44,654 bases of DNA from a virus. The DNA is taken from IMG/VR virus record IMGVR_UViG_3300045988_143597; one strand, given 5' to 3'. Of this stretch, positions 2,925 to 41,046 are shown in pieces; the stretch's first letter is position 1; each line of letters begins with the position of its first letter. A program made the position numbers and the translations under genes. Below the pieces are notes generated by a model, which saw only the letters and a program-made list of their open reading frames with translations, made no database searches and was not told the DNA's origin.

Positions 2925-2927
2925 GAC

Positions 2928-22944: not shown

Positions 22945-22972
22945 TTGACTTGCCTTTCGCCTGGTGTAATGT
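22945..22972 (+). promoter_or_regulatory. candidate sigma-70-like promoter of the plus-strand island
   Basis: TTGACT (22945-22950), 16-nt spacer, TAATGT (22967-22972), about 45 nt upstream of ATG 23019. Confidence 0.35.
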
Positions 22973-23018
22973 AGTTGGTGTCAGCAAGAAAGACACACAC
23001 CGCAAAGGAAACAAAAAC

Positions 23019-23342
23019 ATGAACGCAAAGAAAAACACCGAACAGCACCTAGACAACATAATCTCCAACTTCTTCGACACAACCTACGAATACATTGACT
23101 ACATTCGCGGCGCCGAAACGCTCAACCTCAACAATGAAAATACCCCGCTAGGTACCCGCCTAGTCGCAAACCTAAAAAATTCATACCGGGAAGCTGCCGA
23201 GCATCTCACGCAGATCGAGATCAAAGCAATCATCAAAACTGTAACCTCGATCAATCGCCAAACCATGCTAGACAGCGAGCTCAATCTAACCAACGACCTC
23301 GACGCTTTCGCAAGCGACCTCATCGACCAAATCAACCGCTAA
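23019..23342 (+). CDS. hypothetical protein
   Basis: ATG 23019 preceded by AAGGAAA. 107 aa. The track ORF start at 22950 lacks an RBS. Confidence 0.6.
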   Translation: MNAKKNTEQHLDNIISNFFDTTYEYIDYIRGAETLNLNNENTPLGTRLVANLKNSYREAAEHLTQIEIKAIIKTVTSINRQTMLDSELNLTNDLDAFASDLIDQINR

Positions 23343-23365
23343 ACGCGCAGAAAGGATCTAAACAA

Positions 23366-23491
23366 TGAACACCCTCTACTACTACGAAACAGATGAGCTG
23401 TTCATTGAAATGGACGAAAACGGCAACTACATCAACTATTGGAAAGTTTCCACACTAGACGACCGCTACTACTTCACCACCGCAGCCTAAA
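23366..23491 (+). CDS. hypothetical small acidic protein (41 aa)
   Basis: Hand translation: MNTLYYYETDELFIEMDENGNYINYWKVSTLDDRYYFTTAA*. RBS GAAAGGA 8 nt upstream. Confidence 0.4.
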
Positions 23492-23553
23492 CCACCACCG
23501 AGCCGCTAGACGAGAGTTTTACCGGCACCCTACCGCCTCAAAGGATACCCGCC

Positions 23554-23856
23554 ATGGACAACGCCTACAGCGACTACAAATTAGCTGAACTGAAAGATCA
23601 CATCACCGAAGAATGGCAAGCACTCCAACTACTTGAGATAGAAGCTATGGACTTCCAAACCAGCATCAGCATAGTTGGCGACCCTGATCAACTCCGCAAC
23701 TCCTCCGACCTGTTCAACCTGGAACAAAACGAACAGCGCGCCACATATGTCGAACACATGCAAGCCAAACTAGAGCGCGCCATCGCCATCTGCCTGACCT
23801 TCGACAACATCACAGATGAACAAATCACCGCAGTACTCGACCGCCATATTGACTAG
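23554..23856 (+). CDS. hypothetical strongly acidic protein
   Basis: 100 aa. 21 D+E versus 7 K+R by direct count. RBS AAAGGA. Confidence 0.65.
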   Translation: MDNAYSDYKLAELKDHITEEWQALQLLEIEAMDFQTSISIVGDPDQLRNSSDLFNLEQNEQRATYVEHMQAKLERAIAICLTFDNITDEQITAVLDRHID

Positions 23857-23875
23857 AAAGCGCACACCTTAGCTC

Positions 23876-24004
23876 ATGAGCAGCGACATCACTACACCCT
23901 TCCTATCAACCGAAACCAAAGAAAAACTAGCAGACATGGCCATCTACGCGGCCACTATCATCGCGGGCGATATCATCGCCGCCCTGGAAGCACGAAACAT
24001 CTAG
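23876..24004 (+). CDS. possible small protein (42 aa)
   Basis: ATG-to-TAG ORF fills the gap between neighbours, but has no clear RBS. Confidence 0.25.
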   Translation: MSSDITTPFLSTETKEKLADMAIYAATIIAGDIIAALEARNI

Positions 24005-24018
24005 AAAGGATCACACCA

Positions 24019-24342
24019 ATGACCACCAACATCTTCAGCCTCCCCCGGTTGGAAACTCTCCATGTATTGGAAGAGTGGGAAACCGAACCTAACCGCCAAG
24101 GTATCGACCTTAAGCGCTGTGTGCTCGCAAACCACGACTGCACCGAAATGTTCGAACTCTATTACGGTGGCGATGATATGGGCTACGGACTCACCATCTG
24201 CGACATAGAACGACGAAACACCTACGACAGCGCCAACACGCAAGATTGGGGCTACCTCGACCGCCTATTCAACGGGCGCGATAACTGGCAGCAACTCATC
24301 ACATACATGGAAAACATGACACCATCCCGGCATGCTGCATAA
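24019..24342 (+). CDS. hypothetical acidic protein
   Basis: 107 aa. RBS GAAAGGA. Last gene of the plus-strand island. Confidence 0.65.
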   Translation: MTTNIFSLPRLETLHVLEEWETEPNRQGIDLKRCVLANHDCTEMFELYYGGDDMGYGLTICDIERRNTYDSANTQDWGYLDRLFNGRDNWQQLITYMENMTPSRHAA

Positions 24343-24355
24343 CACCACAAACTAA

Positions 24356-24383
24356 CCCCCCTCTAGGATCACCTGGAGGGGGG
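24356..24383. terminator. bidirectional hairpin terminator between convergent genes
   Basis: CCCCCCTC-taggatcacctg-GAGGGGGG (8-bp GC stem) followed by TTT on the plus strand. Confidence 0.6.
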
Positions 24384-24403
24384 TTTAAGCATGTCCACAA
24401 TCG

Positions 24404-24634
24404 CTACTGTCCACGCGACGCTATACGGTCGCGGGCTTTCTTAAGTGTAGATATTGTGACGCTACCAGCATTCGCAGTCTCTGCCCATGTAGCGCCTAAT
24501 TCCATCGCTCTCACCATGTTCGCATCTCTCTTTTCCATTATTGCGCTCCGCTGTCTATCCAAGTCAGCTATCCGCTCAGACAACAAAGCAACCTCGGATA
24601 ACGCCTCATCTTTAGATAAAAAATCACTAGACAT
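24404..24634 (-). CDS. hypothetical protein, last gene of the early operon
   Basis: ATG 24634 (MSSDFLSKDEA...) preceded by GAGAGG. 76 aa. Confidence 0.55.
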   Translation of the reverse strand: MSSDFLSKDEALSEVALLSERIADLDRQRSAIMEKRDANMVRAMELGATWAETANAGSVTISTLKKARDRIASRGQ

Positions 24635-24702
24635 AAAACATGACCTCTCAGAAACTCCAGACCCGCACATAACCCTAGCGGCAATGCCCTCGGCTTGACT
24701 CC

Positions 24703-24915
24703 GGGGGGTGGGGGTGGGGGTGTCCCCCCTGGGTGTTTTGGGTGTTGTGTTGTGTTGTTTGGTGTTGTGGGGGTGGGGCGGTGTTGTTGTGGGGGGTGGG
24801 GGGTGTTGTGTTGTGTTGTGGGTGTTGTGGGTGTTTTGGTGGGTTGTTTTGGTGTTTGTGTGGGTGGGTGGTTTGTGTGGGTGGTTTGTGTGGGTGGGTG
24901 GTTGTGGTGGTGTTT
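24703..24915. repeat. near-pure G/T (plus) = C/A (minus) low-complexity tract with G-quadruplex motifs and short internal repeats
   Basis: 24780-24915 has no A or C (136 nt). 24731-24778 likewise (48 nt). G-run sets lie at 24703-24733 and 24769-24803. Confidence 0.9.
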
Positions 24916-25228
24916 ATGTGGTGTGGGTGGTTGTTTTTAGTCCGGGGTGTGGTTCTGGGGGGTGTTTTGCTCTGTTGTGGTGTTGTTGGTGGCCCCATTG
25001 GATTTCTTTGCGGGTTTTTTGTTGGTGGCAGTTGGTGCAGACGGTTTGGAGGTTGTTTGTGGTGTGTGGGCCGCCTTGGCTGAGGGGTATTTTGTGGTCT
25101 ATTTGGTCTGGGGTGCCGGTGCAGCCGGGGTATTGGAGTTGGCAGGTGTGGTTGTCGCGGGTGTGGATGTGGTGTTTTTGTTGTTTGGTGAGGTGTGGGC
25201 GGTGTGTTTTGGTGTTGTAGCCTGGCAT
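24914..25228 (-). CDS. HNH endonuclease (compositionally re-coded)
   Basis: 104 aa. HIHTRDNHTCQLQYPGCTGTPDQIDHKIPLSQGGPHTTNNLQTVCTNCHQQKTRKE matches the C..C...DH..P...GG...NL...C..CH..K pattern. Confidence 0.75.
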   Translation of the reverse strand: MPGYNTKTHRPHLTKQQKHHIHTRDNHTCQLQYPGCTGTPDQIDHKIPLSQGGPHTTNNLQTVCTNCHQQKTRKEIQWGHQQHHNRAKHPPEPHPGLKTTTHTT

Positions 25229-25436
25229 GTTTTTGGTGGGGTTGTTGGGTGGGTTTATTGGGGTTTTTGTGTTGTTTGGCTATGGTTTGTTTGTTGTTTG
25301 GCTGGGTTTTGTTTGTTTTCTTTGGTGGGTTTTGGTGTGGTTTGTGGGTTGTTGTTTGGTGGGTTGTTGGTGATGTCTTTGAGGGTGTGTTTGGTGGTGG
25401 TTGTTTGGTGTCGGTGGTGGTGTGCTGGTTATGTTG

Positions 25437-25466
25437 CCTGTGCCTGTTCCTGTGCCTGTGCCTGTG
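25437..25466. repeat. hexanucleotide microsatellite (cctgtK)x5
   Basis: cctgtg cctgtt cctgtg cctgtg cctgtg, read directly. Confidence 0.85.
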
Positions 25467-25721
25467 GTGCAGGTTGTTGTGGTGGTGGTGTTGTTGTGGT
25501 GCAGGTTGTTGTGGTGGTGTTGTTTGCCATTGGTGTTTCCTTTGGTGTTGGTGTGGTGTGTGTTTGTAGGGGGTGTGCTGGGTGTGTGGGTGAAGCTCGG
25601 TGGTGTGGGGGTTGTGGTGGTGTGCTGGTTGTGTGGTGGCACTGTTGTGCTGTGGTGTGTGTTTGGTGCGGTGGGGTGCCCCGGTTGTGGGGGTGGGGCG
25701 GTGTTGTGGTGGGGTGCCCCG

Positions 25722-25759
25722 GTGCGTACATACCCCCCGGCGTGCGCATACCCCCCCGG
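25722..25759. repeat. tandem 19-bp repeat within an array of CCCCGG-terminated motifs
   Basis: gtgcgtacataccccccgg / cgtgcgcatacccccccgg. CCCCGG also ends at 25684, 25722 and 25782. Confidence 0.8.
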
Positions 25760-25826
25760 TATGTTTAATGCCCCTCCCCCGGTGTGTTGTGGTGGGGTGG
25801 GGCAATAGATTTACTTACTAAACGCA

Positions 25827-25855
25827 ATTATAGCATGTGTTTGCTCAGTGGTCTA
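25827..25855 (-). promoter_or_regulatory. candidate promoter reading into the C/A-rich region
   Basis: Minus strand: TAGACC (25850-25855), 17-nt spacer, TATAAT (25827-25832). Confidence 0.35.
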
Positions 25856-26420
25856 GTTGATGCTGGTCTGTGAGGTATGCGAGGACGTTGGGGAGTTGGT
25901 AGTAGTTGCGTCGGTTTGTTTTGATGCTGGTGATGTGTCCCCGGTAGGTCCAGTTGTAGAGCTGTTTCGGGGTAACGGTGTAGCCATAGCGCTTCAACTT
26001 GATAAGGATGCTGTGTTGCGTTTCCCACTTGGGTGTTGTTGGGGGTTGGGTGTTGGGGAGTTGGTTGGTGAGTTCTTCGGTAATGGTGGGCAGGTCGGTG
26101 TTTGTGAGGTCTAGTGTTTCGGGGTTGGTGGTGATGGTGAGGGCGTGGTGGTCTAGCCAGTGTAGTAGTGCGGTGGGGTTGGTTTGTGGGGGTTGGGTTG
26201 CGAGGATGTCGGCGAGGGCGTGGGTGAGTTCTGTGAGTTTGATTGTTGTTTCTTGTTCTATGGTGAGCCAGTGGATGTTGGTGGGGGGTTTGGGGCCTGT
26301 TGGGGTGTGGGTGGGGATTTCTGGTGGGGGTGTTTTGGTGGTTTTGAGTTGTTTAAGGGTTGTGTAGTGGGTTCGGAGTTGGTTGGTGTGTTGATAGATG
26401 TGGGTGTAGTTAGTGATCAT
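25845..26420 (-). CDS. DNA-binding protein with C-terminal excisionase/MerR-type HTH (compositionally re-coded)
   Basis: 191 aa. C-terminus YTVTPKQLYNWTYRGHITSIKTNRRNYYQLPNVLAYL fits the HTH_17-like pattern. Thr/Pro/Gln/His/Asn-rich N-terminal part. Confidence 0.65.
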   Translation of the reverse strand: MITNYTHIYQHTNQLRTHYTTLKQLKTTKTPPPEIPTHTPTGPKPPTNIHWLTIEQETTIKLTELTHALADILATQPPQTNPTALLHWLDHHALTITTNPETLDLTNTDLPTITEELTNQLPNTQPPTTPKWETQHSILIKLKRYGYTVTPKQLYNWTYRGHITSIKTNRRNYYQLPNVLAYLTDQHQLDH

Positions 26421-26477
26421 GCCTTTGCCCTGGTTTGTTTTGGTGTGGGGTGTGTTGGCTAGTATGCGCCGATACTC

Positions 26478-26714
26478 TTAGTCTTCATGTTGCCAGGTGG
26501 CCAGGGGGATATCTCTTTCTATCCCGTCGTATGCTGTCGACTGTGCGATACGTGCGGCGAGTTGGAGTTTCGAGGCGACTTCATCAGCTAGTGCAGCGCT
26601 GAGGCGTATTTCCAGCGGCGTATCGCCCCCACTGTGGGTTTGCAAAATAACTGGGTGGGTGTCATCGGCGCGGAGAACGACGCTGATTCCCGCCTCTGTG
26701 AGTTTTTCAAACAT
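26478..26714 (-). CDS. hypothetical protein
   Basis: ATG 26714 (MFEKLTEAGISVVLR...) preceded by AGGAG. 78 aa. The upstream extension in the track ORF is low-complexity. Confidence 0.55.
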   Translation of the reverse strand: MFEKLTEAGISVVLRADDTHPVILQTHSGGDTPLEIRLSAALADEVASKLQLAARIAQSTAYDGIERDIPLATWQHED

Positions 26715-26725
26715 CGTGCTGGCTC

Positions 26726-26890
26726 CTAGTCTGTGTGTAGTTGGATGGTGTTTTTGGTGTGCCGTAGGGCGTCGCACCAGCCGTGCCAGTAGTCTGCGGT
26801 TTGCTGTGGCGGCTGTGCGTATCCTTGTTGGAGCATGTCGGTGATCCACGCCAGCACGGGCGCGGGGTCATACCAGTAGGTGGTGTGCAT
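26726..26890 (-). CDS. hypothetical small protein (54 aa, below the track cutoff)
   Basis: Hand translation: MHTTYWYDPAPVLAWITDMLQQGYAQPPQQTADYWHGWCDALRHTKNTIQLHTD*. AGGAG RBS. Fills the gap after dut. Confidence 0.45.
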   Translation of the reverse strand: MHTTYWYDPAPVLAWITDMLQQGYAQPPQQTADYWHGWCDALRHTKNTIQLHTD

Positions 26891-26894
26891 GGGT

Positions 26895-27314
26895 TTAGGC
26901 TCCTGTTGATCCGTGGCCGTTGTTGCCGCGTTGTGTGTCTTCGAACTCTGTGACGGGCTGCCAATCGACCTCTACAGTGTGGTGGATGATGAGCTGGGCG
27001 ATCCGGTCCCCGCGTTGGATGGTGTAGGGCAGGTGCCCTAGGTTGATGAGATTGACGAAGATTTCACCGGTGTAGCCGGGGTCGATCACGCCGGGGGCGT
27101 TGGTGACGGTGATGCGGTGTTTTGCAGCCAGGCCGCTGCGGGGGCAGACGTAACCAACGGTGTTAGGCGGTAGGCCGATGTGTAGGCCGGTGGGGATTAG
27201 TGCATGTTGGCCGGGGGCTAGTGTTTTAGCTGCTGTGGCTGTGAGGTCGTAGCCCGCGTCCGTGGGGTGAGCTTTCACAGGTGCGGGGCCGGTGTGGTTA
27301 ATAGGGGTGGGCAT
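26895..27314 (-). CDS. dut: dUTP diphosphatase
   Basis: Motifs AGYDL, PRSGLA, GVIDPGYTGEI, RIAQL and C-terminal RGNNGHGSTG. Confidence 0.9.
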   Translation of the reverse strand: MPTPINHTGPAPVKAHPTDAGYDLTATAAKTLAPGQHALIPTGLHIGLPPNTVGYVCPRSGLAAKHRITVTNAPGVIDPGYTGEIFVNLINLGHLPYTIQRGDRIAQLIIHHTVEVDWQPVTEFEDTQRGNNGHGSTGA

Positions 27315-27318
27315 GGAT

Positions 27319-27621
27319 TTAGCTCTCTTCCTTTTGCCGGTGGGTGGTTGCTTTGGCTATGTATTCCGCCATCCAGATAGGCATTTTGATTCTCAATTTG
27401 TACTCGGCTACATGGCTTTGAGGTGCGTCCGTCTTGTTAAAGTCCACCCAGATTTCGAGAACTGCATGTTCGTCGTAAAACTCCAAGTCTGCGTCATACG
27501 ACCCCATGCAGGTGAGGCCGAGGGTTGCGACCTCACCGTAGCCGGGGTAAGGCATGACGCTGTAGTCAAGGCCATAGTGATCTGAAAGGGTACGCAGGTT
27601 ATTGTTTTCTGAAACGTTCAT
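27319..27621 (-). CDS. hypothetical protein
   Basis: 100-aa ORF, tightly packed in the early operon. Confidence 0.6.
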   Translation of the reverse strand: MNVSENNNLRTLSDHYGLDYSVMPYPGYGEVATLGLTCMGSYDADLEFYDEHAVLEIWVDFNKTDAPQSHVAEYKLRIKMPIWMAEYIAKATTHRQKEES

Positions 27622-27623
27622 GG

Positions 27624-27998
27624 TTAGCCTCCTAGTAGTTCGCGCTGCTCGTCGCGGAGTTCAGCGCGGAGGGCCTTAAGCCCTAATAGCTTGTCTGCCC
27701 GTGCTTGTTCGTTGGGGTCGCTTAAGTCATCGATCATCATGTCAATGCGGTCGAGCACCCAGCCTATGGTGCGAGCTTCCACCATTTCAGTGTTTGGCGG
27801 TTGCGGTGTGGACACAGCGAGATCCGCAGCATTGACACCCATTACCCGGCAATTTTCTTTAACGCCCTCCCAGTAGAACCAATCGTGTTCGCCTCGCGCT
27901 GATTCTTTCCCTTTGACAGCGTCGCCCGTGCTGTGCTTAATGATGTCGAGCACATCCCCGTACCGGATCCAAGGGTTAGATGTAGGCGTGCTCACCAC
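27624..27998 (-). CDS. hypothetical protein
   Basis: 124-aa ORF. 7-nt overlap with the upstream gene. Confidence 0.6.
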   Translation of the reverse strand: MVSTPTSNPWIRYGDVLDIIKHSTGDAVKGKESARGEHDWFYWEGVKENCRVMGVNAADLAVSTPQPPNTEMVEARTIGWVLDRIDMMIDDLSDPNEQARADKLLGLKALRAELRDEQRELLGG

Positions 27999-28414
27999 TC
28001 CCCCTCTTCCTTCTCCCCTAGGTTGCAGTAGATTTCATCTATGTAGCTAGCGAAGTCTTTAAGGCAGTCGGCTAGGCTGATGGAGATGTACATGGTGCCG
28101 CTGCTGAAAAACAGCTTGCCATCGTAAGTCCTGACAAAGAGGTACATGTTTTCTTTTCGTGGGCACATGATGGGCAGGGTTTTCATGTACACTCCGCGAT
28201 CGGCGACACTAAGCTCAAAGTAATCGCGCCAGACCTCAAGTTGCGTATCGGTAGCCACAACGCTCACGCTTGTGCCGGGGGCTTCGAATAGGAGTGTGGC
28301 GACATAGTTTTCGTCGATGTATTCGATGTCATAGAAACTACTTGACTCAGAGATCTCGTAGCTAAGTTGGAAGTTTCCAAAATCGACGCGGCTGGGTTGG
28401 AGTCGGTCTTGCAT
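27992..28414 (-). CDS. hypothetical protein
   Basis: 140-aa ORF, 3 nt after the RusA stop. Confidence 0.6.
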   Translation of the reverse strand: MQDRLQPSRVDFGNFQLSYEISESSSFYDIEYIDENYVATLLFEAPGTSVSVVATDTQLEVWRDYFELSVADRGVYMKTLPIMCPRKENMYLFVRTYDGKLFFSSGTMYISISLADCLKDFASYIDEIYCNLGEKEEGEW

Positions 28415-28417
28415 GGT

Positions 28418-28783
28418 TTATTTTCCTTCTGTGATGGTGAGCCAGGTGCGGGCGGGTCGTTCTGGATGTTCAATGATTGGCATGTGCTTAGTCATATATT
28501 GCGGGGTGTCATCTGGCACGAGGCCGTAGTCAACGAGGCCGTCGCAGATTGCTTTCAGGGTGGGGACAAGGTTGTCAGCATCGCGGCGGCGTTTATCGAT
28601 GGGGGCGTAGTGCAGGGTGATGGTGCAGTGTTTCAGGTCGCGGGGTAGGCGGTGGGCTTTTGCTAGCCATGTGGTGGTGGTGCGTATTTCTTTTGTGATT
28701 TCCGCCTTTTTGGCCCAGTGGAGGCGCATGTTTGCTGTTAGGGGTGGGCGGCGGTAGTGCAGGGGAATGTAATAGTTGAGCAT
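28418..28783 (-). CDS. rusA: RusA-like Holliday junction resolvase
   Basis: 121 aa. NMRLHWAKK...RRRDADNLVPTLKAICDGLVDYGLVPDD is typical of the RusA acidic catalytic core. Confidence 0.75.
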   Translation of the reverse strand: MLNYYIPLHYRRPPLTANMRLHWAKKAEITKEIRTTTTWLAKAHRLPRDLKHCTITLHYAPIDKRRRDADNLVPTLKAICDGLVDYGLVPDDTPQYMTKHMPIIEHPERPARTWLTITEGK

Positions 28784-28843
28784 TGAATGTCCTTAAAGGG
28801 GTGGGGCCGGTGCGCCTCTCGGCCAGCGGCCAGGTGGTGGGGG

Positions 28844-31369: not shown

Positions 31370-31487
31370 GGGGTTAGCTCCTGCGGTCGATGTCACTTTG
31401 GGTTAGGTGGCAGGTAATTCGGGTTGCTCGGCAATATTTTGGTGTTATAATGTTCATTGGTAGTTTCCTTTCTGTGGTTAGAAAGAA

Positions 31488-31517
31488 GCCCCCGGTTGTG
31501 GATGACCGGGGGCTTTT
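31488..31517. terminator. hairpin terminator after ssb
   Basis: GCCCCCGG-N10-CCGGGGGC (8-bp stem), flanked by TTCTTTC on the minus strand and TTTTG on the plus strand. Confidence 0.6.
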
Positions 31518-33842: not shown

Positions 33843-34192
33843 TCCCCCCGCCCCGCAACCGCGTACATGTTGCGCACTGAAGCGCCCACGGATTGCATGG
33901 CGCGCAGCTCGCTTTCCAGGGCTTTAGAGCGCCTGTCAGCATACTTATAGGCAGCATCAGCGACATCACGCGCTTTTCGCAGTTCCATGGTTTCAGCACG
34001 TGCCGTTTGTTTGCGGTCCTCCATGTTGCCTAGAGCCTTCAGGTAGGCGTGTGCCCACGCCTCATCGAAAGCACGATCAGCTGCTAGATACGCGCGATAA
34101 GCCTCATCGACGACATCAACACCCCTGCTGATCTGCGTAGCCAACTCCCTAATACGAGCTTCAACCTCGACAGGGTTCAGCGGCGCACTCAT
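33836..34192 (-). CDS. hypothetical coiled-coil protein
   Basis: 118-aa ORF with 4-nt and 7-nt overlaps to its neighbours. Confidence 0.6.
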   Translation of the reverse strand: MSAPLNPVEVEARIRELATQISRGVDVVDEAYRAYLAADRAFDEAWAHAYLKALGNMEDRKQTARAETMELRKARDVADAAYKYADRRSKALESELRAMQSVGASVRNMYAVAGRGEW

Positions 34193-34869: not shown

Positions 34870-35044
34870 GTGCCCGCTCCTCTTCTTCTAAATCATCTGC
34901 CACATCCGCCGCACGCCAGATATCATTAGCTAAATCGCGTGCAAACTCAGCGGCGATGATGGTTTCTTTTTGGTTGTTAATGGTGATACCGACAGATGCC
35001 TCACCCTCAACTAGGTAGGATGCGATGTCAGCTTCCATCGGCAT
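34850..35044 (-). CDS. hypothetical acidic protein (64 aa)
   Basis: ATG 35044 (MPMEADIAS...) preceded by GGAGG. The upstream part of the track ORF overlaps the previous gene out of frame. Confidence 0.5.
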   Translation of the reverse strand: MPMEADIASYLVEGEASVGITINNQKETIIAAEFARDLANDIWRAADVADDLEEEERARAYHRH

Positions 35045-35564
35045 TGCCAGCCTCCAGTTGTTTGACGTCCATGGTGGACAGTGCCTGGTTTGCAAGATCT
35101 GCAGCGCCCTCAGTGGGTTTGATTTGCAGATGCCCCGCTTTAATCTCGATTGTGTAGCCGGGCGGCAATTCGGAGCCTTCTTTGAAAGCTTCCAGTGCGC
35201 GGGCAGCTTGCTGGTTGAGATAGGTATCTTTAAGCACCTTGCGCAGATACCTCGGCGCATGTTCCTTCAACACATCAACGATCTCAGAGATGCACAAGTC
35301 ATCAATGACGTAAGTGAATGCATCTTCAGGCGCGTTCACGATCAGCGAGTGCAGATCTGCGATCACAGCTGTTGGCTTAGGTGACGTTTTCGTCACGGTG
35401 CCAAGTTTCACGCCCGCTGGCGTATGCGCAACCAGCCGGTCACCCTCGGACATGCCACTGTCGAGTGCAGCGCGGTATTCTTTGTGGACATCTTGCAGCT
35501 GGTTGAGCACAGCTCGCTGCAAAACTAGCTGGTTAATTTGCTCTCGTATGTTCATTCTTGTCAT
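35028..35564 (-). CDS. hypothetical protein
   Basis: ATG 35564 (MTRMNIREQ...) preceded by GGAAGGGG. 178 aa. Confidence 0.6.
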   Translation of the reverse strand: MTRMNIREQINQLVLQRAVLNQLQDVHKEYRAALDSGMSEGDRLVAHTPAGVKLGTVTKTSPKPTAVIADLHSLIVNAPEDAFTYVIDDLCISEIVDVLKEHAPRYLRKVLKDTYLNQQAARALEAFKEGSELPPGYTIEIKAGHLQIKPTEGAADLANQALSTMDVKQLEAGNADGS

Positions 35565-35850
35565 ATCCCCTTCCAAGGATCAGCGCCACTGATTTTTTGT
35601 GCTTTGGGCAAAAACATAAGCCCCACGATCCGGTGCCAATTTGGATACAATCGGGCCATAGGCAGGGCCGGTAAATGCGCTCACACAGTGGCGTATGTAT
35701 CCCCGATTTAGCGGCACAGAGTACATCCGTGGCGTTGTATTTCCACTCGCCATAGCGGTGGCGGAATGCCCTGATGTGCATATCGTTGTGATGTTTGCGC
35801 AGATATTCCCTCGGCACTTTCAGCACCTGAGTTGCGCGTTTTTCCGACAT
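35533..35850 (-). CDS. hypothetical Cys/His-rich protein
   Basis: ATG 35850 lies just after the upstream stop. Contains CERIYRPCLWPDC...CFCPKH. The start is uncertain (the track start is TTG at 35889). Confidence 0.5.
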   Translation of the reverse strand: MSEKRATQVLKVPREYLRKHHNDMHIRAFRHRYGEWKYNATDVLCAAKSGIHTPLCERIYRPCLWPDCIQIGTGSWGLCFCPKHKKSVALILGRGYDKNEHTRAN

Positions 35851-35857
35851 GTGAGTG

Positions 35858-36058
35858 TCATTGATCACGGCACCGCTCCAGTGCGACAAGCTCCCATAAT
35901 CGCAGCTTCTCCACCAATCTCAACAATGCGCGTCGTTCTTCAGCGCTCCACATAGATGATGCTGACGACATTTCCACTACACGCGCGGCGCGTATCAATG
36001 CCCACACAACCATTCCGGGAACAAACGGGTTAAACCTATCTGTCATGGTTACTTTCAT
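35858..36058 (-). CDS. hypothetical protein
   Basis: 66-aa ORF with a 4-nt overlap to the upstream gene. Confidence 0.5.
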   Translation of the reverse strand: MKVTMTDRFNPFVPGMVVWALIRAARVVEMSSASSMWSAEERRALLRLVEKLRLWELVALERCRDQ

Positions 36059-36246
36059 TCCACATCCTCATGTGTAGAGGAGATGTCGAAGCGCGCCAGC
36101 TCATCTTTGAGACAATTGAGCAGCAACGTCCATTGCTCGAATCGGAGATCAGTGGCATCACCGCTCAGGTAGATGGTGCCGTTCTCATAGAGGGTGAAAT
36201 GCGTGCCATTGATGCTGTGCGTGGCTAGGGGTTTAGGTACGGACAT
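36055..36246 (-). CDS. hypothetical protein
   Basis: ATG 36246 (MSVPKPLATH...) preceded by AGGAGA. 63 aa. Confidence 0.5.
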   Translation of the reverse strand: MSVPKPLATHSINGTHFTLYENGTIYLSGDATDLRFEQWTLLLNCLKDELARFDISSTHEDVE

Positions 36247-36257
36247 AGAGCTGTCTC

Positions 36258-36467
36258 CTAGGTGAGGTATTCGGATAGTCGATCGACGGGGATTTTGTAG
36301 GTTGAGTGCTTGCACCGCTGGGTGGCGAACGACTCTTCACGTGCGCAGCGCTGCCGTAGTCGGTTTGGTGACATGTTGACGATTTGGGCGAACTCATCAA
36401 CGGTTAAAAGTGCTGTCCTACGTCCAATAACTGCTTCTGTCAGGTCAATGAGTTGTTTGCGATTCAT
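36258..36467 (-). CDS. HTH DNA-binding protein (excisionase-like)
   Basis: ATG 36467 preceded by GGGAGG. LLTVDEFAQIVNMSPNRLRQRC is an HTH. Confidence 0.5.
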   Translation of the reverse strand: MNRKQLIDLTEAVIGRRTALLTVDEFAQIVNMSPNRLRQRCAREESFATQRCKHSTYKIPVDRLSEYLT

Positions 36468-36530
36468 TCCAGTGCCTCCCCTCATAGGTGTCGTGGTTGA
36501 GGTAGATCAAGATGGATAGTGCGGTGGCGA

Positions 36531-36761
36531 TCATTGGCGGCCATCCTTGAACAATTCCGGTACCTCGTTGCAGAAAACGCAGTCGCAGTGTTCGTCTTTC
36601 TTTTGTGCTTGTGCGATGGACTCAGCAACAGTGTTAGCGACAAGGGCTAATATGGCGCGTTTAGTTCGTAGTGTTTGAAGTTCAGCCCACATAACAGCTG
36701 CATATGTTGTGGTGAGTGCGATGGCACAGATAGCCAGCACTAGGACGGCGAAATTGAGCAT
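36531..36761 (-). CDS. small membrane protein
   Basis: ATG 36761 preceded by AGGAG. N-terminal TM helix MLNFAVLVLAICAIALTTTYAAVMW. Confidence 0.55.
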   Translation of the reverse strand: MLNFAVLVLAICAIALTTTYAAVMWAELQTLRTKRAILALVANTVAESIAQAQKKDEHCDCVFCNEVPELFKDGRQ

Positions 36762-36836
36762 GTTTACTCCTATGTTGTGGTGTTGTTTTGCTTGCTGGGG
36801 ATATGCCATAACAGTTCACAGCGATATATCCCCTCG

Positions 36837-36861
36837 TGTCCCCTGCCGGAGTTGAACCGGC
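36837..36861 (-). other. tRNA 3'-end-like fragment (T-arm + acceptor strand)
   Basis: Minus strand: GCCGG-TTCAACT-CCGGC-AGGGGAC-A. No matching 5' half at tRNA distance. Confidence 0.45.
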
Positions 36862-36967
36862 GGCGTGCGTTTGCGCCGTTATCTGAACGGCACGTGTTTA
36901 CTGAAACCGCATCCGTAGAAAATTGGATAAAAAAATACGCACGTGGCGGCCTGCGCCGGGGACATGT

Positions 36968-37005
36968 GGCCCCGCTAATGGGGCCGGTGGATTTGTTTTG
37001 TTTTT
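36968..37005 (+). terminator. plus-strand-oriented intrinsic terminator in a minus-strand gene region
   Basis: GGCCCC-gctaat-GGGGCC followed by ggtggaTTTGTTTTGTTTTT. Confidence 0.45.
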
Positions 37006-37233
37006 CCAGAGGACGTGTGCCATTACCTCACCATATGGTGGTTCCTACATGCCTGTTTGCGCTTAACCAAGCCTTTGCGAGAGGGTGGGATTTATGCCGT
37101 CATCACGACGGCCAGCGCCTGTATCTCACACGTCCTATATATTCAGTTATTCAAAGAACACGACACTGTTGTGTCTCGTGTGCGCCCGGGGGATTGCACC
37201 CCGGCTACTGCCCTACTAGGGGCGCACTGCCAC

Positions 37234-37353
37234 TTAAACCAGGGCAGGTAGGTGGATCAATAGGTCAATGAGACCGATGATGAGGATGGTTAGAAGGATG
37301 GTGTCGAACACAACACCGGGGGTCGTGTAGTCACGCCAGGTAGGTTTGTCCAT
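37234..37353 (-). CDS. small membrane protein (39 aa), chimeric paralogue of 38387-38497 and 38297-38383
   Basis: Hand translation: MDKPTWRDYTTPGVVFDTILLTILIIGLIDLLIHLPALV*. The ATG lies 2 nt after the ant stop. Confidence 0.5.
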   Translation of the reverse strand: MDKPTWRDYTTPGVVFDTILLTILIIGLIDLLIHLPALV

Positions 37354-37355
37354 AA

Positions 37356-38144
37356 CTAGCCCCTACCCGTCACAGTGACGTCACCGCTAGGGGGTAAGTC
37401 AAGGAGGCTCGGCGGGTCGATACGATCCAACCCCAATTTGCGGCGGATAAAATCAACCCCGGACGGCTGCACGTAGGTTGTGTAGCGAATGACCTGTTCC
37501 CCATTCGAGCGCTCGAAGGTATATGCCTTGACCTCAAAGTGCTGCATGTACTTCTGGTACGGGGTATTTGCATTTGCGCCCTTTGCGATGAACACACCAC
37601 GGTTACGCAGCTCTTTAAACAGCTTGTTTTGCCCCATGCCCAACATCTTTGCCACCGTTCCGACGTTGTATTTGCCTGTAGCGTCAATGAACGTGTCGTA
37701 AGCGTCGGCCTTTGGCTCAAGTTCTTTGTTCTTAGCTTCCAGGGCGAGGCGTTCTTCTTCGGCGTTCAACGCGATACGGAGAATCTCAGCGCGGGTGAGA
37801 TCGGCGGGGCTGAATTGATTTGCGTTGTAGGACCCGGTGCGACGAATCTGCGGCAAAACCTCCTCAAACACCCAGCGCTCAAACCGTTGAGCCGCTGGCA
37901 ACTTAGAAGAGACGATCAAGCGCATAACGTCCGGCTCGGTGATGAACTTTGCCTGTTGCTCACGACCAAGGCTGTCTAAGATGGGTCGGTAAATCACCGA
38001 CCCACGCACATGTTGGGCAATAGCGTCAGCGGTTCGCTTGTAGCCCAACGCTTCAGCGACATCGCGGCCGCAAAACCACTCCCCGTGTTCATCTACGAAT
38101 GTGCGGACGGGGCTGTGATCGAAGTTGAAAGTCTGTAGTTCCAT
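37356..38144 (-). CDS. antirepressor (Bro-N domain + KilAC/ANT-type C-terminal domain)
   Basis: N-terminus FNFDHSPVRTFVDEHGEWFCGRDVAEALGY is Bro-N-like. C-terminus GTVAKMLGMGQNKLFKELRNRGV is KilAC-like. Confidence 0.75.
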   Translation of the reverse strand: MELQTFNFDHSPVRTFVDEHGEWFCGRDVAEALGYKRTADAIAQHVRGSVIYRPILDSLGREQQAKFITEPDVMRLIVSSKLPAAQRFERWVFEEVLPQIRRTGSYNANQFSPADLTRAEILRIALNAEEERLALEAKNKELEPKADAYDTFIDATGKYNVGTVAKMLGMGQNKLFKELRNRGVFIAKGANANTPYQKYMQHFEVKAYTFERSNGEQVIRYTTYVQPSGVDFIRRKLGLDRIDPPSLLDLPPSGDVTVTGRG

Positions 38145-38296
38145 TGTTGAATCTCCTATCTAAGTGGCTGGTTCAGAAACAACGGTTTCCATCTAGGGGT
38201 TGAAGTTGAAATCGAAGCCGGTGAGTGCGCTTACTCACATCGACATTGGGAGTCCTGCGAGCGCCCCGGCGATAGCCCTACAGGGGCGCACTGTCC

Positions 38297-38383
38297 TTAA
38301 ACCAGGGCGGGCAGGTGGGTTAGTAGCTCGATGAGGGCGATAAAGCCGTCTAGGTAGTCGAGGGGTGTGAGGGTTTCATTCAT
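38297..38383 (-). CDS. possible small protein (28 aa)
   Basis: MNETLTPLDYLDGFIALIELLTHLPALV*. The C-terminus is shared with 37234-37353. Confidence 0.35.
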   Translation of the reverse strand: MNETLTPLDYLDGFIALIELLTHLPALV

Positions 38384-38386
38384 GTG

Positions 38387-38497
38387 TCATGCTCCTAAAG
38401 CGGCGGCCCCGAAAATCAAGCCGATAATTAGAATGGTTAGAAGGATGGTGTCGAACACGGCACCGGGGGTTGTGTAATCTCGCCAGGTGGGTTTCAT
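38387..38497 (-). CDS. small membrane protein (36 aa)
   Basis: MKPTWRDYTTPGAVFDTILLTILIIGLIFGAAALGA*. ATGA overlap with the Cro-like stop. Confidence 0.5.
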   Translation of the reverse strand: MKPTWRDYTTPGAVFDTILLTILIIGLIFGAAALGA

Positions 38498-38727
38498 GCT
38501 GCTGAGCTTTCGATGGTTGGGGTGTCTAGTACGAGGATCTTGCTGGGGCGGGCACCCAACCGAGCGAGAGCACCCAAAACCGAAGCTGAAGGTTGACGAT
38601 GCTTAAGCACCGCAGACCATGTATTCCTGCTAACACCGGTCTTTTCCGCAAGGTCTTTAGTTGTTTCGATGTGATGTGCCCGCTTTACGCGGTCAACCTC
38701 ATCTAAAGAGATAAGAAAACTTGTCAT
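38494..38727 (-). CDS. Cro-like XRE-family HTH regulator
   Basis: ATG 38727 preceded by GAGAAAGG. TKDLAEKTGVSRNTWSAVLKHRQ is an HTH. Divergent from the repressor gene. Confidence 0.7.
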   Translation of the reverse strand: MTSFLISLDEVDRVKRAHHIETTKDLAEKTGVSRNTWSAVLKHRQPSASVLGALARLGARPSKILVLDTPTIESSAA

Positions 38728-38756
38728 TTTGTAGCCTTTCTCGCTTACATGACAAG

Positions 38757-38785
38757 AGTTTAGGTCACTTTGCAAGCCCCCGCAA
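38757..38785 (-). promoter_or_regulatory. candidate early (leftward) promoter
   Basis: Minus strand: TTGCGG (38780-38785), 17-nt spacer, TAAACT (38757-38762). Confidence 0.35.
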
Positions 38786-38840
38786 GTTTTAAAGGTAGAA
38801 AAATTGGTCAACCCTTAAAGAAATGCAGGTAATTGTGGAC

Positions 38841-38869
38841 TTGATGCACAAAAAATTGTGCACTATACT
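38841..38869 (+). promoter_or_regulatory. candidate repressor promoter giving a leaderless mRNA
   Basis: TTGATG (38841-38846), 17-nt spacer, TATACT (38864-38869). The repressor ATG lies at 38877, 8 nt after the -10. Confidence 0.5.
38845..38862. promoter_or_regulatory. palindromic operator candidate TGCACAA-aaaa-TTGTGCA
   Basis: Perfect 7-bp inverted repeat inside the promoter spacer. A related half-site AATTGTGGAC lies at 38831-38840. Confidence 0.5.
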
Positions 38870-38876
38870 GAACGGC

Positions 38877-39470
38877 ATGACAGATCCACGAGAAGTTTTT
38901 AAGTCACTTACTGGCAAACGAGTTACGTCCGTTGACATCGCGGAAATGTTGGACGTCAGCCGAAATACAGTCCAAACATGGATCAAAGAAGGGTTCGCCG
39001 CAGATGAAATCATCAAGGTCGCTCGGGAACTCAACATCAACCCCGCCGAAGCTCTAGTTGAACTTGGAAAACTCACAGCAAAAGAGGTCACCGACTTCAT
39101 CGAAGGTGGCGGCACTTTGCTTGAATTGGCAAGCCTTGAGGCCCTGATCCAACAACTTGCAAAGGTCGGACTAAATGCGGAGGAACTGGCCGAGCTGTCA
39201 AGCGACGGGCTACAGCGCCTAGAGAAAAAGTGGGAGCTTCAGCTCAAAGAATTGAAAGAATCAAACACCGAAAACACGCAGGCCAACATGGCCGACGTCG
39301 CACACCTGGACGAAAAGCGCAACACAACTGTCCAGCCCGGCCAGTACGATCCAGAGCACGAAAACGCGGTAGATCTAGCAACCTCAGACCCAGGCGAAAT
39401 CGCAGCCGACGGTTCAATCAACGAAACCGACGCCGCATACGACGAACAAGACACAGACAACGCCCGCTAA
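38877..39470 (+). CDS. ImmR/CI-like HTH repressor
   Basis: MTDPREVFKSLTGKRVTSVDIAEMLDVSRNTVQTWIKEG is an HTH. Acidic C-terminal tail. First gene of the immR-immA-int-like operon. Confidence 0.7.
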   Translation: MTDPREVFKSLTGKRVTSVDIAEMLDVSRNTVQTWIKEGFAADEIIKVARELNINPAEALVELGKLTAKEVTDFIEGGGTLLELASLEALIQQLAKVGLNAEELAELSSDGLQRLEKKWELQLKELKESNTENTQANMADVAHLDEKRNTTVQPGQYDPEHENAVDLATSDPGEIAADGSINETDAAYDEQDTDNAR

Positions 39471-39488
39471 CACAGAAAGGAACCATCG

Positions 39489-39881
39489 TTGAGACTAACG
39501 ACGGACAACCTCTACACCCTCGCCGAACAACACAATATCCACATCAGCTGGCGAACCAACCTCCCCCACAAAGGCATCTGGATCCCCAACCTCCACACCA
39601 TCGTCCTCAACAACCACATCCACGGCCCCGACCTCCGCTGCACACTAGCCCACGAACTAGCCCACGCACTCCACAACCACCCACCAGGCCACCACCCCCA
39701 CAACGAACGTCAAGCAGACGAAACTGCAGCCACATGGCTCATCACCCCCACCGAATACGCACTAGCAGAAAAAATCTACGGACCACACATCGCCGACATA
39801 GCCCAAGAACTCGAAGTCACCATGCACATGGTAAAAACCTGGCGAAAAATGGCCGCCCGAAAACGACTACAGCCAAAATAA
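39489..39881 (+). CDS. ImmA/IrrE-family metallopeptidase
   Basis: TTG start preceded by AAAGGA. HEXXH motif in CTLAHELAHALHNH. 130 aa. Confidence 0.7.
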   Translation: MRLTTDNLYTLAEQHNIHISWRTNLPHKGIWIPNLHTIVLNNHIHGPDLRCTLAHELAHALHNHPPGHHPHNERQADETAATWLITPTEYALAEKIYGPHIADIAQELEVTMHMVKTWRKMAARKRLQPK

Positions 39882-39909
39882 CCACCCAACACACCAAAGG
39901 TCTCCAACC

Positions 39910-41046
39910 ATGGCAAGCATCCGCAAATACAAGACTGCCACCGGCACCGCGTGGCGGGTCCAATACCGATCACCGGATGGGCGCAGTCGTACAAAACAAG
40001 GGTTTCCCACCAAAGCCAAAGCAGAATCATGGGCCGCAGCAAACACCACCCAGATCGACGCAGGGGCATGGATCGACCCAAATGCAGGGAAAACCACCAT
40101 CGACCAACTATCCGAACAATGGCTAGCCACACAAACACGACTTAAACCAACCGTGCAACGCCTCAATGAAAGCTATTGGCGCGTACACATACAACCACAA
40201 TGGGGACGCCGACCGGCGTCCTCCATACGACCCTCCGAAGTGCAACAATGGATAAACAACATAGACCGCTCCCCTAGCGTCATTAAAGGCGCGCACGGGT
40301 GCTTAGCCCAAATCTTGGACATCGCCGTCAATGACAACATGATTCCAAGCAACCCTGCACGCCTAGCGAAACTGCCGAAAAAGAATAAAGCCGTCAAAGT
40401 GTATCTAACCATTGAGCAGCTTTACCGGTTGGCAGATGAGTCGAAGGTCTACAAAGATCTAGTTCTGTTGCTTGGAACTACGGGGCTTAGGTGGGGTGAA
40501 GCTATCGCACTACGTCCGTGTGATTTTGACCTATTGAAGCGCAGGATCAACGTCACACGCAATGCCACGCGCGCATCGGATGGGTTTGTGGTCGGGCCTC
40601 CGAAAACACATGAGCATCGTACTGTTGCGATAACGTCGCACGCCCTGGAGGTTCTACGGCCACGCATTGAGGCCACCGGTGCTGATGCATTGTTGTGGCA
40701 CGGCGCAGATGGCAATTTTTTGCGTCACGCGGGTAAAGAATCGTGGTTTGAGTATGCGGTGAGAAGGTGCCAGGACAGCGATCTGACGTTTCCACGGTTA
40801 ACGCCTCATGGTTTGAGGCATGTGGCGGCGGGGTTAATGGTATCTGCGGGGGCGAATGTGAAGGTTGTGCAGCGTCAACTTGGTCACGCATCGGCGGCTA
40901 TGACGTTGGATACATACGCGGATTTATTTGACGGGGACCTTGACGGTGTGGCCGATATTTTGGAGAAAAAGTTGAACGATTGTCGTGGGATTGTCGTGGG
41001 ATTGCCTGATAAAAGGTCTTCTAGCAGCTCGAAAAGTGCCGTCTAG
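39910..41046 (+). CDS. int: tyrosine integrase
   Basis: 378 aa. N-terminus MASIRKYKTATGTAWRVQYRSPDGRSRTK is an arm-binding domain. Catalytic region LLLGTTGLRWGEA...HGLRHVAAGL...LGHASAAMTLDTYADLF. Confidence 0.9.
   Translation: MASIRKYKTATGTAWRVQYRSPDGRSRTKQGFPTKAKAESWAAANTTQIDAGAWIDPNAGKTTIDQLSEQWLATQTRLKPTVQRLNESYWRVHIQPQWGRRPASSIRPSEVQQWINNIDRSPSVIKGAHGCLAQILDIAVNDNMIPSNPARLAKLPKKNKAVKVYLTIEQLYRLADESKVYKDLVLLLGTTGLRWGEAIALRPCDFDLLKRRINVTRNATRASDGFVVGPPKTHEHRTVAITSHALEVLRPRIEATGADALLWHGADGNFLRHAGKESWFEYAVRRCQDSDLTFPRLTPHGLRHVAAGLMVSAGANVKVVQRQLGHASAAMTLDTYADLFDGDLDGVADILEKKLNDCRGIVVGLPDKRSSSSSKSAV
40980..41004. repeat. 25-bp arm-type repeat (2 x TGTCGTGGGAT), copy 1, inside the int 3' end
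   Basis: ttgtcgtgggattgtcgtgggattg is identical to 41212-41236. Confidence 0.85.

Follow-up and report, generated by a model that had tools for sequence, protein, structure and literature searches.

In vertebrate mitochondrial DNA (mtDNA) the A+C-rich sense sequences of the L strand are attributed to deamination of the displaced H strand. The coding strand is A/C-rich and G and T are nearly absent at four-fold degenerate sites. Reported here is a bias of the same kind and of comparable magnitude in IMG/VR virus record IMGVR_UViG_3300045988_143597. The window (the whole stretch of 44,654 bp, or 44.65 kb, that was analysed) is the complete genome of a temperate siphovirus, and the bias is strongest in a cassette at the genome end, which carries the gene for a terminal HNH endonuclease and stops at the inferred cohesive end site (cos). 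As in mtDNA the bias spills over into amino-acid composition (compare PMC2779903). Unlike that of mtDNA, the phage skew is local (1.8–7 kb of a 44.6-kb double-stranded DNA phage) and patchy, its two mirror-image states change over at the genome end, and only some relatives display a gradient with distance. We know of no strand-displacement replication for this phage.

Replication skews of GC or keto content, found in bacterial chromosomes and in linear viruses replicated from their ends, also switch polarity at a defined point, and the 5′-ended strand at each terminus of the phage is G+T-rich, as for a displaced or lagging-template strand (PMC3269016). However, the phage skew is several times stronger, its domains differ in size and have interruptions, it switches at cos and not at the predicted initiator gene, and only some related cos phages show it. 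Szybalski's rule and transcription-coupled asymmetry in phage genomes concern coding strands rich in purines or in G+T. The late genes of the phage, with G over C and T over A at synonymous sites, display the direction that transcription-coupled deamination of the non-template strand would give. But in the early, lysogeny, and moron blocks the sign is reversed, gene orientation does not set the sign, and the sign flips inside the integrase gene (int). The gene order at the genome end is that of HK97 gp74-type HNH-terminase cos modules, with the HNH gene immediately upstream of cos-TerS-TerL-portal; background on HNH-terminase packaging is found in PMC12967558 and PMC9611059. Segments with a composition of their own bounded by recombination joints, and accessory genes that are present or absent (here a 3-kb segment, an Abi_2 gene, and a glutaredoxin gene), are as expected of temperate-phage mosaicism and morons. 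Unlike in the usual compositional mosaicism, the segments differ in strand asymmetry and not in G+C content. No description of an A/C-recoded terminal HNH gene or of a mirror-image skew across cos was found in a literature search that left most subscription journals outside.

The proposal made here concerns a subset of cos actinobacteriophages (of Corynebacterium, Prescottella, Gordonia, and one high-GC host). In these an end-anchored strand-asymmetric process would have turned the stretch that ends at cos, a few hundred to ~2,000 bp long, into near-pure A/C on one strand, recoded the HNH gene to 100% A/C at silent sites, and put the mirror bias on the terminase genes. Belief and doubt are nearly balanced for this proposal.

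The A/C cassette and the inferred cohesive end

The extreme A/C cassette occupies positions 24695–26470 (minus strand) at the right physical end of the genome. It is 80–100% A+C at all codon positions and in non-coding DNA as well, an extreme that the initial annotation, made from the sequence and its open reading frames, had understated. The cassette is conserved in L088 (a 42.3-kb IMG/VR contig), in L210, and in prophage L226 of Corynebacterium argentoratense. The gene for the terminal HNH endonuclease, which is of the packaging-associated type (Pfam HNH, 8e-11; phrog_333, 3e-24), is found at 24914–25228 (minus strand). A+C at its third codon positions (AC3) is 0.98–0.99, and 44 of 44 four-fold sites are A or C. 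Its coding region shows 3 mismatches and no indels against L088. The flanks, in the same comparison, display slippage-type indels of 19, 2, 21, 15, 6, 3, 12, and 1 nt. Because these indels break the frame, the flanks are taken as non-coding, and the 376-codon open reading frame at 24675–25805 (minus strand), which is out of frame with HNH and has no family match, is spurious.

The leader (25229–25805, minus strand, ~577 nt) is non-coding, A/C-only, and consists of short tandem A/C repeats with a few conserved G-runs; open reading frames read through it gave no Pfam match. In its 5′ part (25690–25800, minus strand) conserved G-runs can pair with C-runs (GCCCCACCCC...GGGGGAGGGGC), and a 19-nt unit, CCGGGGGGTATG(C/T)(G/A)CGCAC, occurs in two copies in the window and in one copy in L088. 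The non-coding trailer (24695–24913, minus strand, ~220 nt) includes a 136-nt pure A/C run at 24780–24915. It contains the element CCCAGGGGGGACACCCCCACCCCCACCCCCC at 24703–24733, and the right terminus of Gordonia phage BeeGee carries the same element, CCCAGGGGG-AC-CACCCCCACCCCCC. The ReT1v-1 terminus has a C-run triplet. On the plus strand the cos-side G-run/C-run element (24716–24729) resembles a terminator, with the hairpin GGGGGTGTCCCCCC and a T-rich tail behind it, and is situated downstream of the plus-strand morons.

Upstream of the leader, on the minus strand, is the phrog_12885 gene (25845–26420, minus strand, 191 aa; PHROG match 2e-27 over the full length), whose C-terminal 50 residues also match phrog_908. 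It has an AC3 of 0.88 and a four-fold A+C of 0.92, and the same protein is found in L178 and L226. A tblastn search of this protein against deposited phages gave no match, for which low-complexity masking is probably to blame. A promoter-like site, TAGACC-17-TG-TATAAT (extended −10; scan match 10/12 with TG), is found at 25827–25855 (minus strand). It sits in the only T-containing island of the tract, and the island is 100% conserved in L088. As a lead only, this site is a candidate for the start of a leader-HNH-cos-terminase transcript; in the promoter/terminator scan, promoter-like matches overall were at or below chance.

The RNA of the cassette shows a self-structure of −0.08 kcal/mol/nt versus about −0.30 elsewhere, 6-bp palindromes number 1.7/kb versus about 11/kb, and C minus G is +0.34. 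The sequence has the composition of a Rho-utilisation-like site (≥80 nt, C-rich, G-poor, unstructured), a resemblance in composition alone. Such a composition, however caused, entails the changes in structure, palindromes, and C over G. Of the four canonical G-quadruplex motifs of the genome, three are on the G+T-rich strand complementary to the cassette, at virion positions 43032–43065, 43290–43317, and 44085–44110 (window ~26283–26316, 26031–26058, and 25238–25263).

The position of cos is inferred to be at about 24,694 (region 24680–24708; right end ~24694, left end ~24693), so that the virion top strand is the minus strand of the window. The placement relies on the resemblance of the window there to the deposited ends of Rhodococcus phage ReT1v-1 and to the right terminus of BeeGee. 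With a slash marking the ends, the homology covers TCAAG / C..GAGGGC..TGTGCG..GGGTCTGG, and the ReT1v-1 ends align with the window around ...GGAGTCAAG / CCGAGGGC...GGGTCTGG. The HNH-terminase module is present in order, the HNH gene being followed by TerS (phrog_1897), TerL, and the portal gene, and in cultured cos actinophages HNH homologues occupy the physical ends. A scan of IMG/VR with a degenerate cos motif gave 41 loci, among which the genuine ones were the window's own relatives alone. Across the inferred cos, A+C drops from 0.88–1.00 to 0.34 within 100 nt, between co-oriented genes. Several IMG/VR contigs from one sample end at the A/C tract, L083 in the phrog_12885 gene and L177 and L222 at ~24714, which suggests that short-read assemblies fragment at this low-complexity sequence.

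Two mirror-image synonymous spectra

The A+C-rich state is not confined to the cassette. The five hand counts of the initial annotation are all exact: on the plus strand, A38 C32 G12 T18 at 23041–23140, 73% A+C at 39541–39640, and 67% at 40021–40120; for minus-strand genes, 85% at 26041–26140 and 64% at 30001–30100. Four-fold A+C is 0.75 (n = 961) in the minus-strand genes from SSB to HNH and 0.77 (n = 329) in the plus-strand morons together with Rep and ImmA. In TerS, TerL, portal, and the minor tail genes it is 0.30 (n = 1475), and in the whole genome 0.49 (n = 7010). The A+C and G+T gene sets differ with p = 1e-105, and 21 of the 59 genes deviate in composition after Bonferroni correction.

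The three A+C blocks share one four-fold spectrum (A 0.25–0.35, C 0.43–0.50, G 0.10–0.15, T 0.10–0.13) and are statistically alike (p = 0.45); the right arm gives A 0.25, C 0.50, G 0.15, and T 0.10. The two late blocks also have one spectrum (G 0.38–0.40, T 0.31, C 0.17–0.18, A 0.11–0.14), and the two spectra are nearly reverse complements of each other. The purine/pyrimidine ratio at four-fold sites is barely shifted (0.40 versus 0.43–0.46), which fits transitions. A+C segments differ from the others in strand asymmetry at a similar G+C (0.47–0.61). The bias sets amino against keto bases between the strands at the level of nucleotides, with two mirror-image states and a neutral one. It affects synonymous sites, non-coding DNA, and, where it is strongest, amino-acid content.

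The late genes had been described as about 47–49% A+C, and pooled late coding strands do give 0.473; this average hides a strong opposite synonymous bias, with an AC3 of 0.18–0.38 in the terminase, portal, and minor-tail genes. The early module as a whole had been included among the A+C-rich genes, which is too broad: twelve genes from the cro-like gene to the Zn-binding protein gene (32242–38811) are neutral or mixed, and two in this early-left stretch, ERF (0.27) and the Zn-binding protein gene (0.26), are G+T-rich. The integrase gene is A+C-rich as described in codons 1–160 and G+T-rich afterwards. As was also said, the bias of the A+C blocks is opposite to the usual transcription-associated direction and is visible in codon choice, e.g. 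the dUTPase gene uses CTA for 5 of 10 Leu, ACA for 6 of 16 Thr, CAA for 3 of 5 Gln, and AAA for 3 of 3 Lys.

Relation to transcription and to DNA strand

The initial annotation held that the sign of the skew tracks transcription direction rather than DNA strand. This is not supported: the late genes are on the same strand and have the opposite sign, and int flips within one open reading frame. Among co-oriented genes the coding-strand AC3 ranges from 0.18 to 0.98. Flips between co-oriented genes are found in L084, L086, and L171 also, and in L226 a co-oriented Abi_2 gene beside the cassette is unskewed. A cause at the level of whole mRNAs is contradicted, as the flip at cos is between co-oriented genes (inside one unit if the late transcript crosses cos) and the flip in int is in mid-gene.

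A replication-strand effect had been argued against, and this exclusion does not stand. In per-gene fits a two-domain DNA-strand model gives an R2 of 0.46, a module-restricted strand-following model 0.45, and pure strand-following 0.07. The DNA-strand and module models are inseparable in this genome because the plus-strand genes all lie where the plus strand is A+C-rich. For the sharpest feature, an end or replication effect is the better account. In virion orientation the nine bottom-strand genes all lie where top-strand genes are G+T-rich, and at each cohesive end the strand with the 5′ terminus is the G+T-rich one. The cumulative keto excess displays a single minimum at the inferred cos/genome end and a single maximum at v30,795 (30.8 kb), the divergent repressor/cro-like switch, with plateaus and local reversals in the curve. 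An HTH_36 initiator-like gene (32651–33529) is found at a switch of terminus-like polarity.

The same polarity in other phages

The deposited phage ReT1v-1 is unremarkable overall, but its last gene, an HNH homologue (42% identical), has an AC3 of 0.96 and its TerS an AC3 of 0.17. In BeeGee the values are 0.96 for HNH, 0.39 for TerS, and 0.42 for TerL, with gradients toward both ends. The 67%-GC contig L171 shows 1.00 for HNH and 0.22 for TerL. Four independent lineages (the window group, ReT1v-1, BeeGee, and L171) pair a terminal HNH gene with an AC3 of 0.96–1.00 with G+T-rich terminases. The flip at cos is found elsewhere as well: L210 is as the window, ReT1v-1 goes from 0.77 to 0.40, and BeeGee from 0.75 to 0.45. 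In BeeGee the skew weakens away from both ends, and in ReT1v-1 it weakens away from the left end. In L084 and L086, early genes with an AC3 of 0.7–0.87 are followed by same-strand late genes with 0.14–0.32.

Over ten phages, with kinship ignored, the AC3 of HNH correlates negatively with that of TerS (rho = −0.86, p = 0.003) and of TerL (rho = −0.93, p = 0.0003). Phages with an unskewed HNH gene, namely Survivors and two M. abscessus prophages, have unskewed terminases. HNH homologues situated away from the right end, in Alpacados, RGL3, and DatBoi, are unskewed.

Protein composition, codon usage, and host

Amino-acid composition does not explain the bias. The SNF2/methylase gene has an AC3 of 0.70 versus 0.54 in mycobacteriophage orthologues that are 72% identical, and 156 orthologues have a mean AC3 of 0.547 (sd 0.063). 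Over 569 identical residues, A in the window stands against G in the orthologue 69 times, and the reverse is seen 6 times. At its strongest the bias extends to the protein: the share of K+N+T+Q+H+P rises to 65% in HNH, 56% in the phrog_12885 protein, and 42% in ImmA versus 24–27% in unskewed homologues and other genes, the unskewed homologues of HNH standing at 26%.

Host codon usage was taken from ~9 kb of host flank in L181 (59% GC), where four-fold sites have C 0.45, G 0.25, T 0.19, and A 0.11. Four-fold A in the A+C blocks is 0.25–0.35 versus 0.11 in the host. The A-fraction of NNR codons is 0.31 in the host versus 0.66–0.77 in the A+C blocks. The C-fraction of NNY codons is 0.75 in the host, 0.80–0.89 in the A+C blocks, and 0.37–0.42 in the G+T blocks. 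The major capsid protein gene is intermediate (AC3 0.56), and no tRNA gene is found in the window. The bias is caused neither by the direction of transcription nor by translation or host codon usage. The direction of host replication was rejected as a cause as well: the host flank is unskewed (A+C 0.495), and Rep and ImmA are A+C-rich though co-oriented with the host genes.

Mosaicism and history of the skewed segments

The suggestion of a shared foreign origin receives partial support, from compositional edges that coincide with homology breakpoints (31975/31976, 24623, and inside int) and from the states of int alleles. At 31975/31976 the compositional edge is accompanied by a fall in identity to L083 and L088 from 94–96% to 87–91%. 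Identity to L088 is 96–98% in unskewed regions and 91–92% in the skewed block. A 3-kb segment between cos and TerS (21538–24623) is present in the window, L176, and L177 and absent in L088 and L226. In L226 the Abi_2 gene (abortive-infection family, 7817–8776), absent from the window, is inserted on the same strand just upstream of the phrog_12885 gene, between it and the small open reading frames after dUTPase. Its four-fold value of 0.54 shows no skew, and its neighbours are at 0.94 and 1.00.

The int allele of L085 is identical at 59 of the first 60 residues yet is uniformly 0.33–0.42 in AC3; 19 of the 24 nt differences are A/C in the window versus G/T in L085. Transversions make up 6 of 17 directional synonymous differences, and dS is ~0.4. 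Thus the int alleles, Abi_2, and the breakpoints indicate that the skew state is a heritable property of DNA segments, independent of protein and transcript.

One candidate history was rejected and another withdrawn. Recent hypermutation does not agree with the substitutions between the window and L088, which are near symmetric. Erosion of the skew had been read from a 172:91 lineage-specific excess of A/C-to-G/T changes, and simulation shows that the filter used (five agree, one differs) alone gives a 2.1- to 3.7-fold excess under stationarity. Composition among the relatives looks stationary, with no sign of decay.

Other skewed blocks

The right-arm early block (26478–32105, minus strand) is moderately A+C-rich, with an AC3 of 0.58–0.78. 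It consists of a 78-aa open reading frame, dUTPase, three small open reading frames, RusA, the SNF2-helicase/N6-N4 methylase, and SSB. Its intensity varies among relatives (SNF2 0.62–0.71, dUTPase 0.60–0.78). Between a 100-aa open reading frame and dUTPase, relatives carry a 56-aa open reading frame and a glutaredoxin/NrdH-like gene (L088 14118–14536, L226 6256–6674, L084 12140–12558), which are lacking in the window (junction 27314–27319). The SNF2-helicase/N6-N4 methylase fusion (28844–31396, minus strand) is widespread, with 53–69% identity to proteins in prophages of Actinomycetota and Pseudomonadota and ~72% to its counterpart in cluster-F-type mycobacteriophages.

The five or six small open reading frames of the moron block (22950–24342, plus strand) have an AC3 of 0.70–0.81 and are 0.35–1.7 kb from the left genome end. 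They have no Pfam match, and no homologues in another genomic context were found in IMG/VR. They are part of the 3-kb segment between cos and TerS, which also contains a PAPS-reductase-like gene (22074–22814, minus strand; phrog_2302, 5e-29; four-fold A+C 0.72) and two small open reading frames. The best promoter-like match of the region, TTGACA-16-TATGAT (22866–22839), belongs to the PAPS-reductase-like gene, and a strong terminator-like hairpin (21700–21664) is found downstream of the next open reading frame.

The lysogeny block (38823–40400, plus strand) contains an HTH repressor-like gene (AC3 0.67), an ImmA/M78 peptidase gene (AC3 0.89, four-fold 0.93), and int codons 1–160 (0.65–0.80). 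In L180, L183, and L184 the equivalent of ImmA (window 39489–39881) was not called, and a 42-aa open reading frame on the opposite strand was called instead; in L181 and L182 it was called. Extreme composition appears to defeat automatic prediction of this gene. A spurious 298-codon open reading frame at 39230–40126 (plus strand) is, as had been stated, a by-product of the bias. It is out of frame with Rep, ImmA, and Int (offsets 2, 2, and 1), and local T is 11%. Codons 161–378 of int (40401–41046, plus strand) are G+T-rich at synonymous sites, with an AC3 of 0.20–0.40, so that the flip is intragenic. Adjoining attP, a 221-aa HTH protein gene (41375–42040, plus strand) goes from an AC3 of 0.80 at its 5′ end to 0.23 at its 3′ end.

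The mirror-image G+T-rich late genes are TerS, TerL, and portal (17892–21446, minus strand; four-fold A 0.14, C 0.17, G 0.38, T 0.31), which are directly across cos in relatives without the 3-kb insert, and four minor-tail/tail-fibre genes (100–4574, minus strand; AC3 0.18–0.38). The tape-measure gene (4660–10833, minus strand) ranges from 0.26 to 0.66 per 100 codons, which suggests compositional patches smaller than a gene. A second HNH endonuclease gene, unrelated to the terminal one, is found in the early-left stretch (33519–33842, minus strand) with a normal AC3 of 0.57.

Genome, host, and integration

Gene functions were assigned with Pfam and PHROGs. The phage genome comes from human oral metagenomes. 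L088 and other contigs align with the window end to end. The integrase region is identical on a 44.7-kb contig from a human oral metagenome, and the L181 copy is integrated beside cellular genes at the 3′ end of a tRNA gene (L181 11300–20076). Comparison of the window with this integrated junction places the attP core at 41072–41096 (plus strand), which equals the 3′ end of the host tRNA gene. The attB tRNA gene is oriented, in the lysogen, into the 3′ end of int. An annotated protein of Corynebacterium argentoratense, a bacterium of the human mouth and throat, shares 97% identity with the terminal HNH protein. By this match, and with prophage L226 present in the C. argentoratense genome, that species is identified as the host.

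Megablast with both window halves showed no close deposited phage at the DNA level. The terminase protein shares ~60% identity with its counterparts in Rhodococcus, Gordonia, and Mycobacterium phages. A scan of genome contigs with SNF2 gave relatives only, at ≤69% identity, and locus searches with single proteins (HNH, ImmA, the first moron, phrog_12885) gave close relatives almost exclusively.

Discussion

The explanation preferred here is that an end-anchored strand-asymmetric pressure together with mosaic exchange produced the bias; it is tentative, and somewhat more doubtful than assured. Over the 1.8 kb that lead up to cos the top strand is almost pure A/C; immediately past cos, over TerS, TerL, and portal, it is G+T-rich. 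The plus-strand morons, within 1.7 kb of the left end, would merely read the other strand of that domain. A process that recurs in each infection cycle is inferred to treat the 5′-ended strands differently. These strands might be displaced, become single-stranded, and undergo deamination (C to T, A to G), or they might be resected or nick-translated from cos nicks and resynthesised with common G.T mispairs that enrich the new strand in G and T. Either course would give the observed sign. Exchange of modules between phages would then move already skewed segments and leave sharp edges at recombination joints, with Rep-ImmA-Int(N), SSB-SNF2-RusA, ERF, and the Zn-binding protein gene in states not predicted by their present positions. 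A single end-anchored, polarity-switching cause is preferred over gene-specific selection mainly because HNH and terminase covary across cos. The molecular cause may be mutational or selective, and a transcript-level component may act on lysogen-expressed genes.

Several observations weigh against an end-anchored process or are not explained by it. Beyond ~1.8 kb from the right end the profile is non-monotonic (78-aa open reading frame 0.65, dUTPase 0.78, 124-aa open reading frame 0.58, RusA 0.77, SSB 0.74, next gene 0.26), and at the right end of ReT1v-1 the skew is a step that does not reach beyond HNH. Rep-ImmA-Int(N) is ~29 kb from the left end among neutral neighbours. Near the left end the sign of the PAPS-reductase-like gene (four-fold 0.72) does not fit its strand. 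An integrase only 29.5% identical to that of the window (39910–41046), in L174 (6525–7658), shows the same switch near codons 120–160. Three phages with the HNH-cos-TerS arrangement, Survivors, prophiFVLQ01-1, and prophiT46-3, have no skew, so that proximity to cos is not sufficient. In the ten-phage correlation the window and L226 are one lineage. Finally, selection on the nucleic acid could give the same local pattern.

In such selection the late-operon leader, the HNH and phrog_12885 mRNAs, early and lysogenic transcripts, or the DNA at the packaging end would be kept A/C-rich, since an A/C-only strand cannot self-pair and is C-rich and G-poor. The benefits could be unstructured RNA for translation, attenuation of late or lytic transcripts of the Rho-loading type, absence of palindromic restriction sites on the DNA that enters first, or a need of the terminase when packaging stops. 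Structure, palindromes, and the C-over-G shift are as this requires, but they follow from composition anyway. G-containing islands, i.e. the promoter-like site and the G-run/C-run hairpins, are conserved inside the tract, although promoter-like matches do not exceed chance. The extreme state is kept in HNH genes only ~40% identical, and edges are step-like, with phrog_12885 at 0.92 beside the 78-aa open reading frame at 0.66 and Abi_2 at 0.54, and only HNH skewed in ReT1v-1. Genes likely to be expressed in the lysogen (Rep, ImmA, the morons, PAPS reductase) are A+C-rich on their own coding strand, and in the 3′ half of int, facing the attB tRNA gene, it is the antisense strand that is A+C-rich. 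Selection leaves unexplained why terminases are mirror-image solely in phages with a skewed HNH, why the flip at cos is between co-oriented genes inside a would-be single late transcript, and why the early-left operon and Abi_2 are neutral; it is regarded as a rather unlikely cause that still deserves attention. Pure mosaic import, i.e. segments that were skewed in other phages or contexts, assembled here by recombination, and now unmaintained, is unlikely as well. It would only shift the question of what made the extreme states, and it does not account for the covariation of HNH and terminase, for the stationary composition among relatives, or for the same HNH-cos-terminase polarity in four lineages at saturated synonymous divergence. 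It does agree with edges at homology breakpoints and inside int, with the presence or absence of the 3-kb moron/PAPS segment among genomes that are 96–98% identical, with opposite states of the same int N-terminal protein in two relatives, and with the one spectrum of the three A+C blocks.

Bidirectional theta replication, with an origin at or near cos, a terminus in the immunity/early-left region, and a leading-strand G+T skew, would match the origin-like polarity of cos, the terminus-like polarity of the rep/cro switch, and the usual sign of leading strands (PMC3269016). Yet the arms would be very unequal (about 7–14 kb versus 30–37 kb), the putative HTH_36 initiator with its flanking intergenic region is at a switch of the wrong polarity, and a magnitude of up to 100% at four-fold sites is far above known replication skews and comes with patchy profiles; this model is improbable. 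Least credible, and hardly to be entertained, is translational selection or adaptation to host tRNAs, or else conventional transcription-coupled mutation. The preference for C-ending NNY codons is shared by host and A+C blocks, but the phage has no tRNA, the A-ending NNR codons depart from the host, the capsid gene, for which high expression is expected, takes an intermediate value, non-coding DNA shows the strongest skew, and the use of amino acids is altered as well. From transcription-coupled deamination one would expect coding strands to be skewed the other way (PMC3269016). The four-fold, NNR, and non-coding data already contradict these readings.

It is common practice to interpret strand skews as marks left by replication or transcription. 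In this double-stranded DNA phage a skew of mitochondrial strength is confined to segments and switches abruptly to its mirror image at the cohesive end, a switch that recurs in four lineages. In practical terms such tracts break metagenome assemblies, create long spurious open reading frames, and make gene callers miss genes (ImmA in three assemblies); they would also mislead the prediction of origins from skew plots and the inference of horizontal transfer from composition. If the cause is selective, the tract is the mark of a new constraint on the sequence of the packaging end or the late-operon leader. If it is mutational, the processing of ends after injection or at packaging would leave a readable, heritable footprint of the strand that is displaced or resynthesised. 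This would give a handle, from sequence alone, on a largely unmapped step in actinophages, and would show how far compositional pressure can push the gene of a working enzyme.

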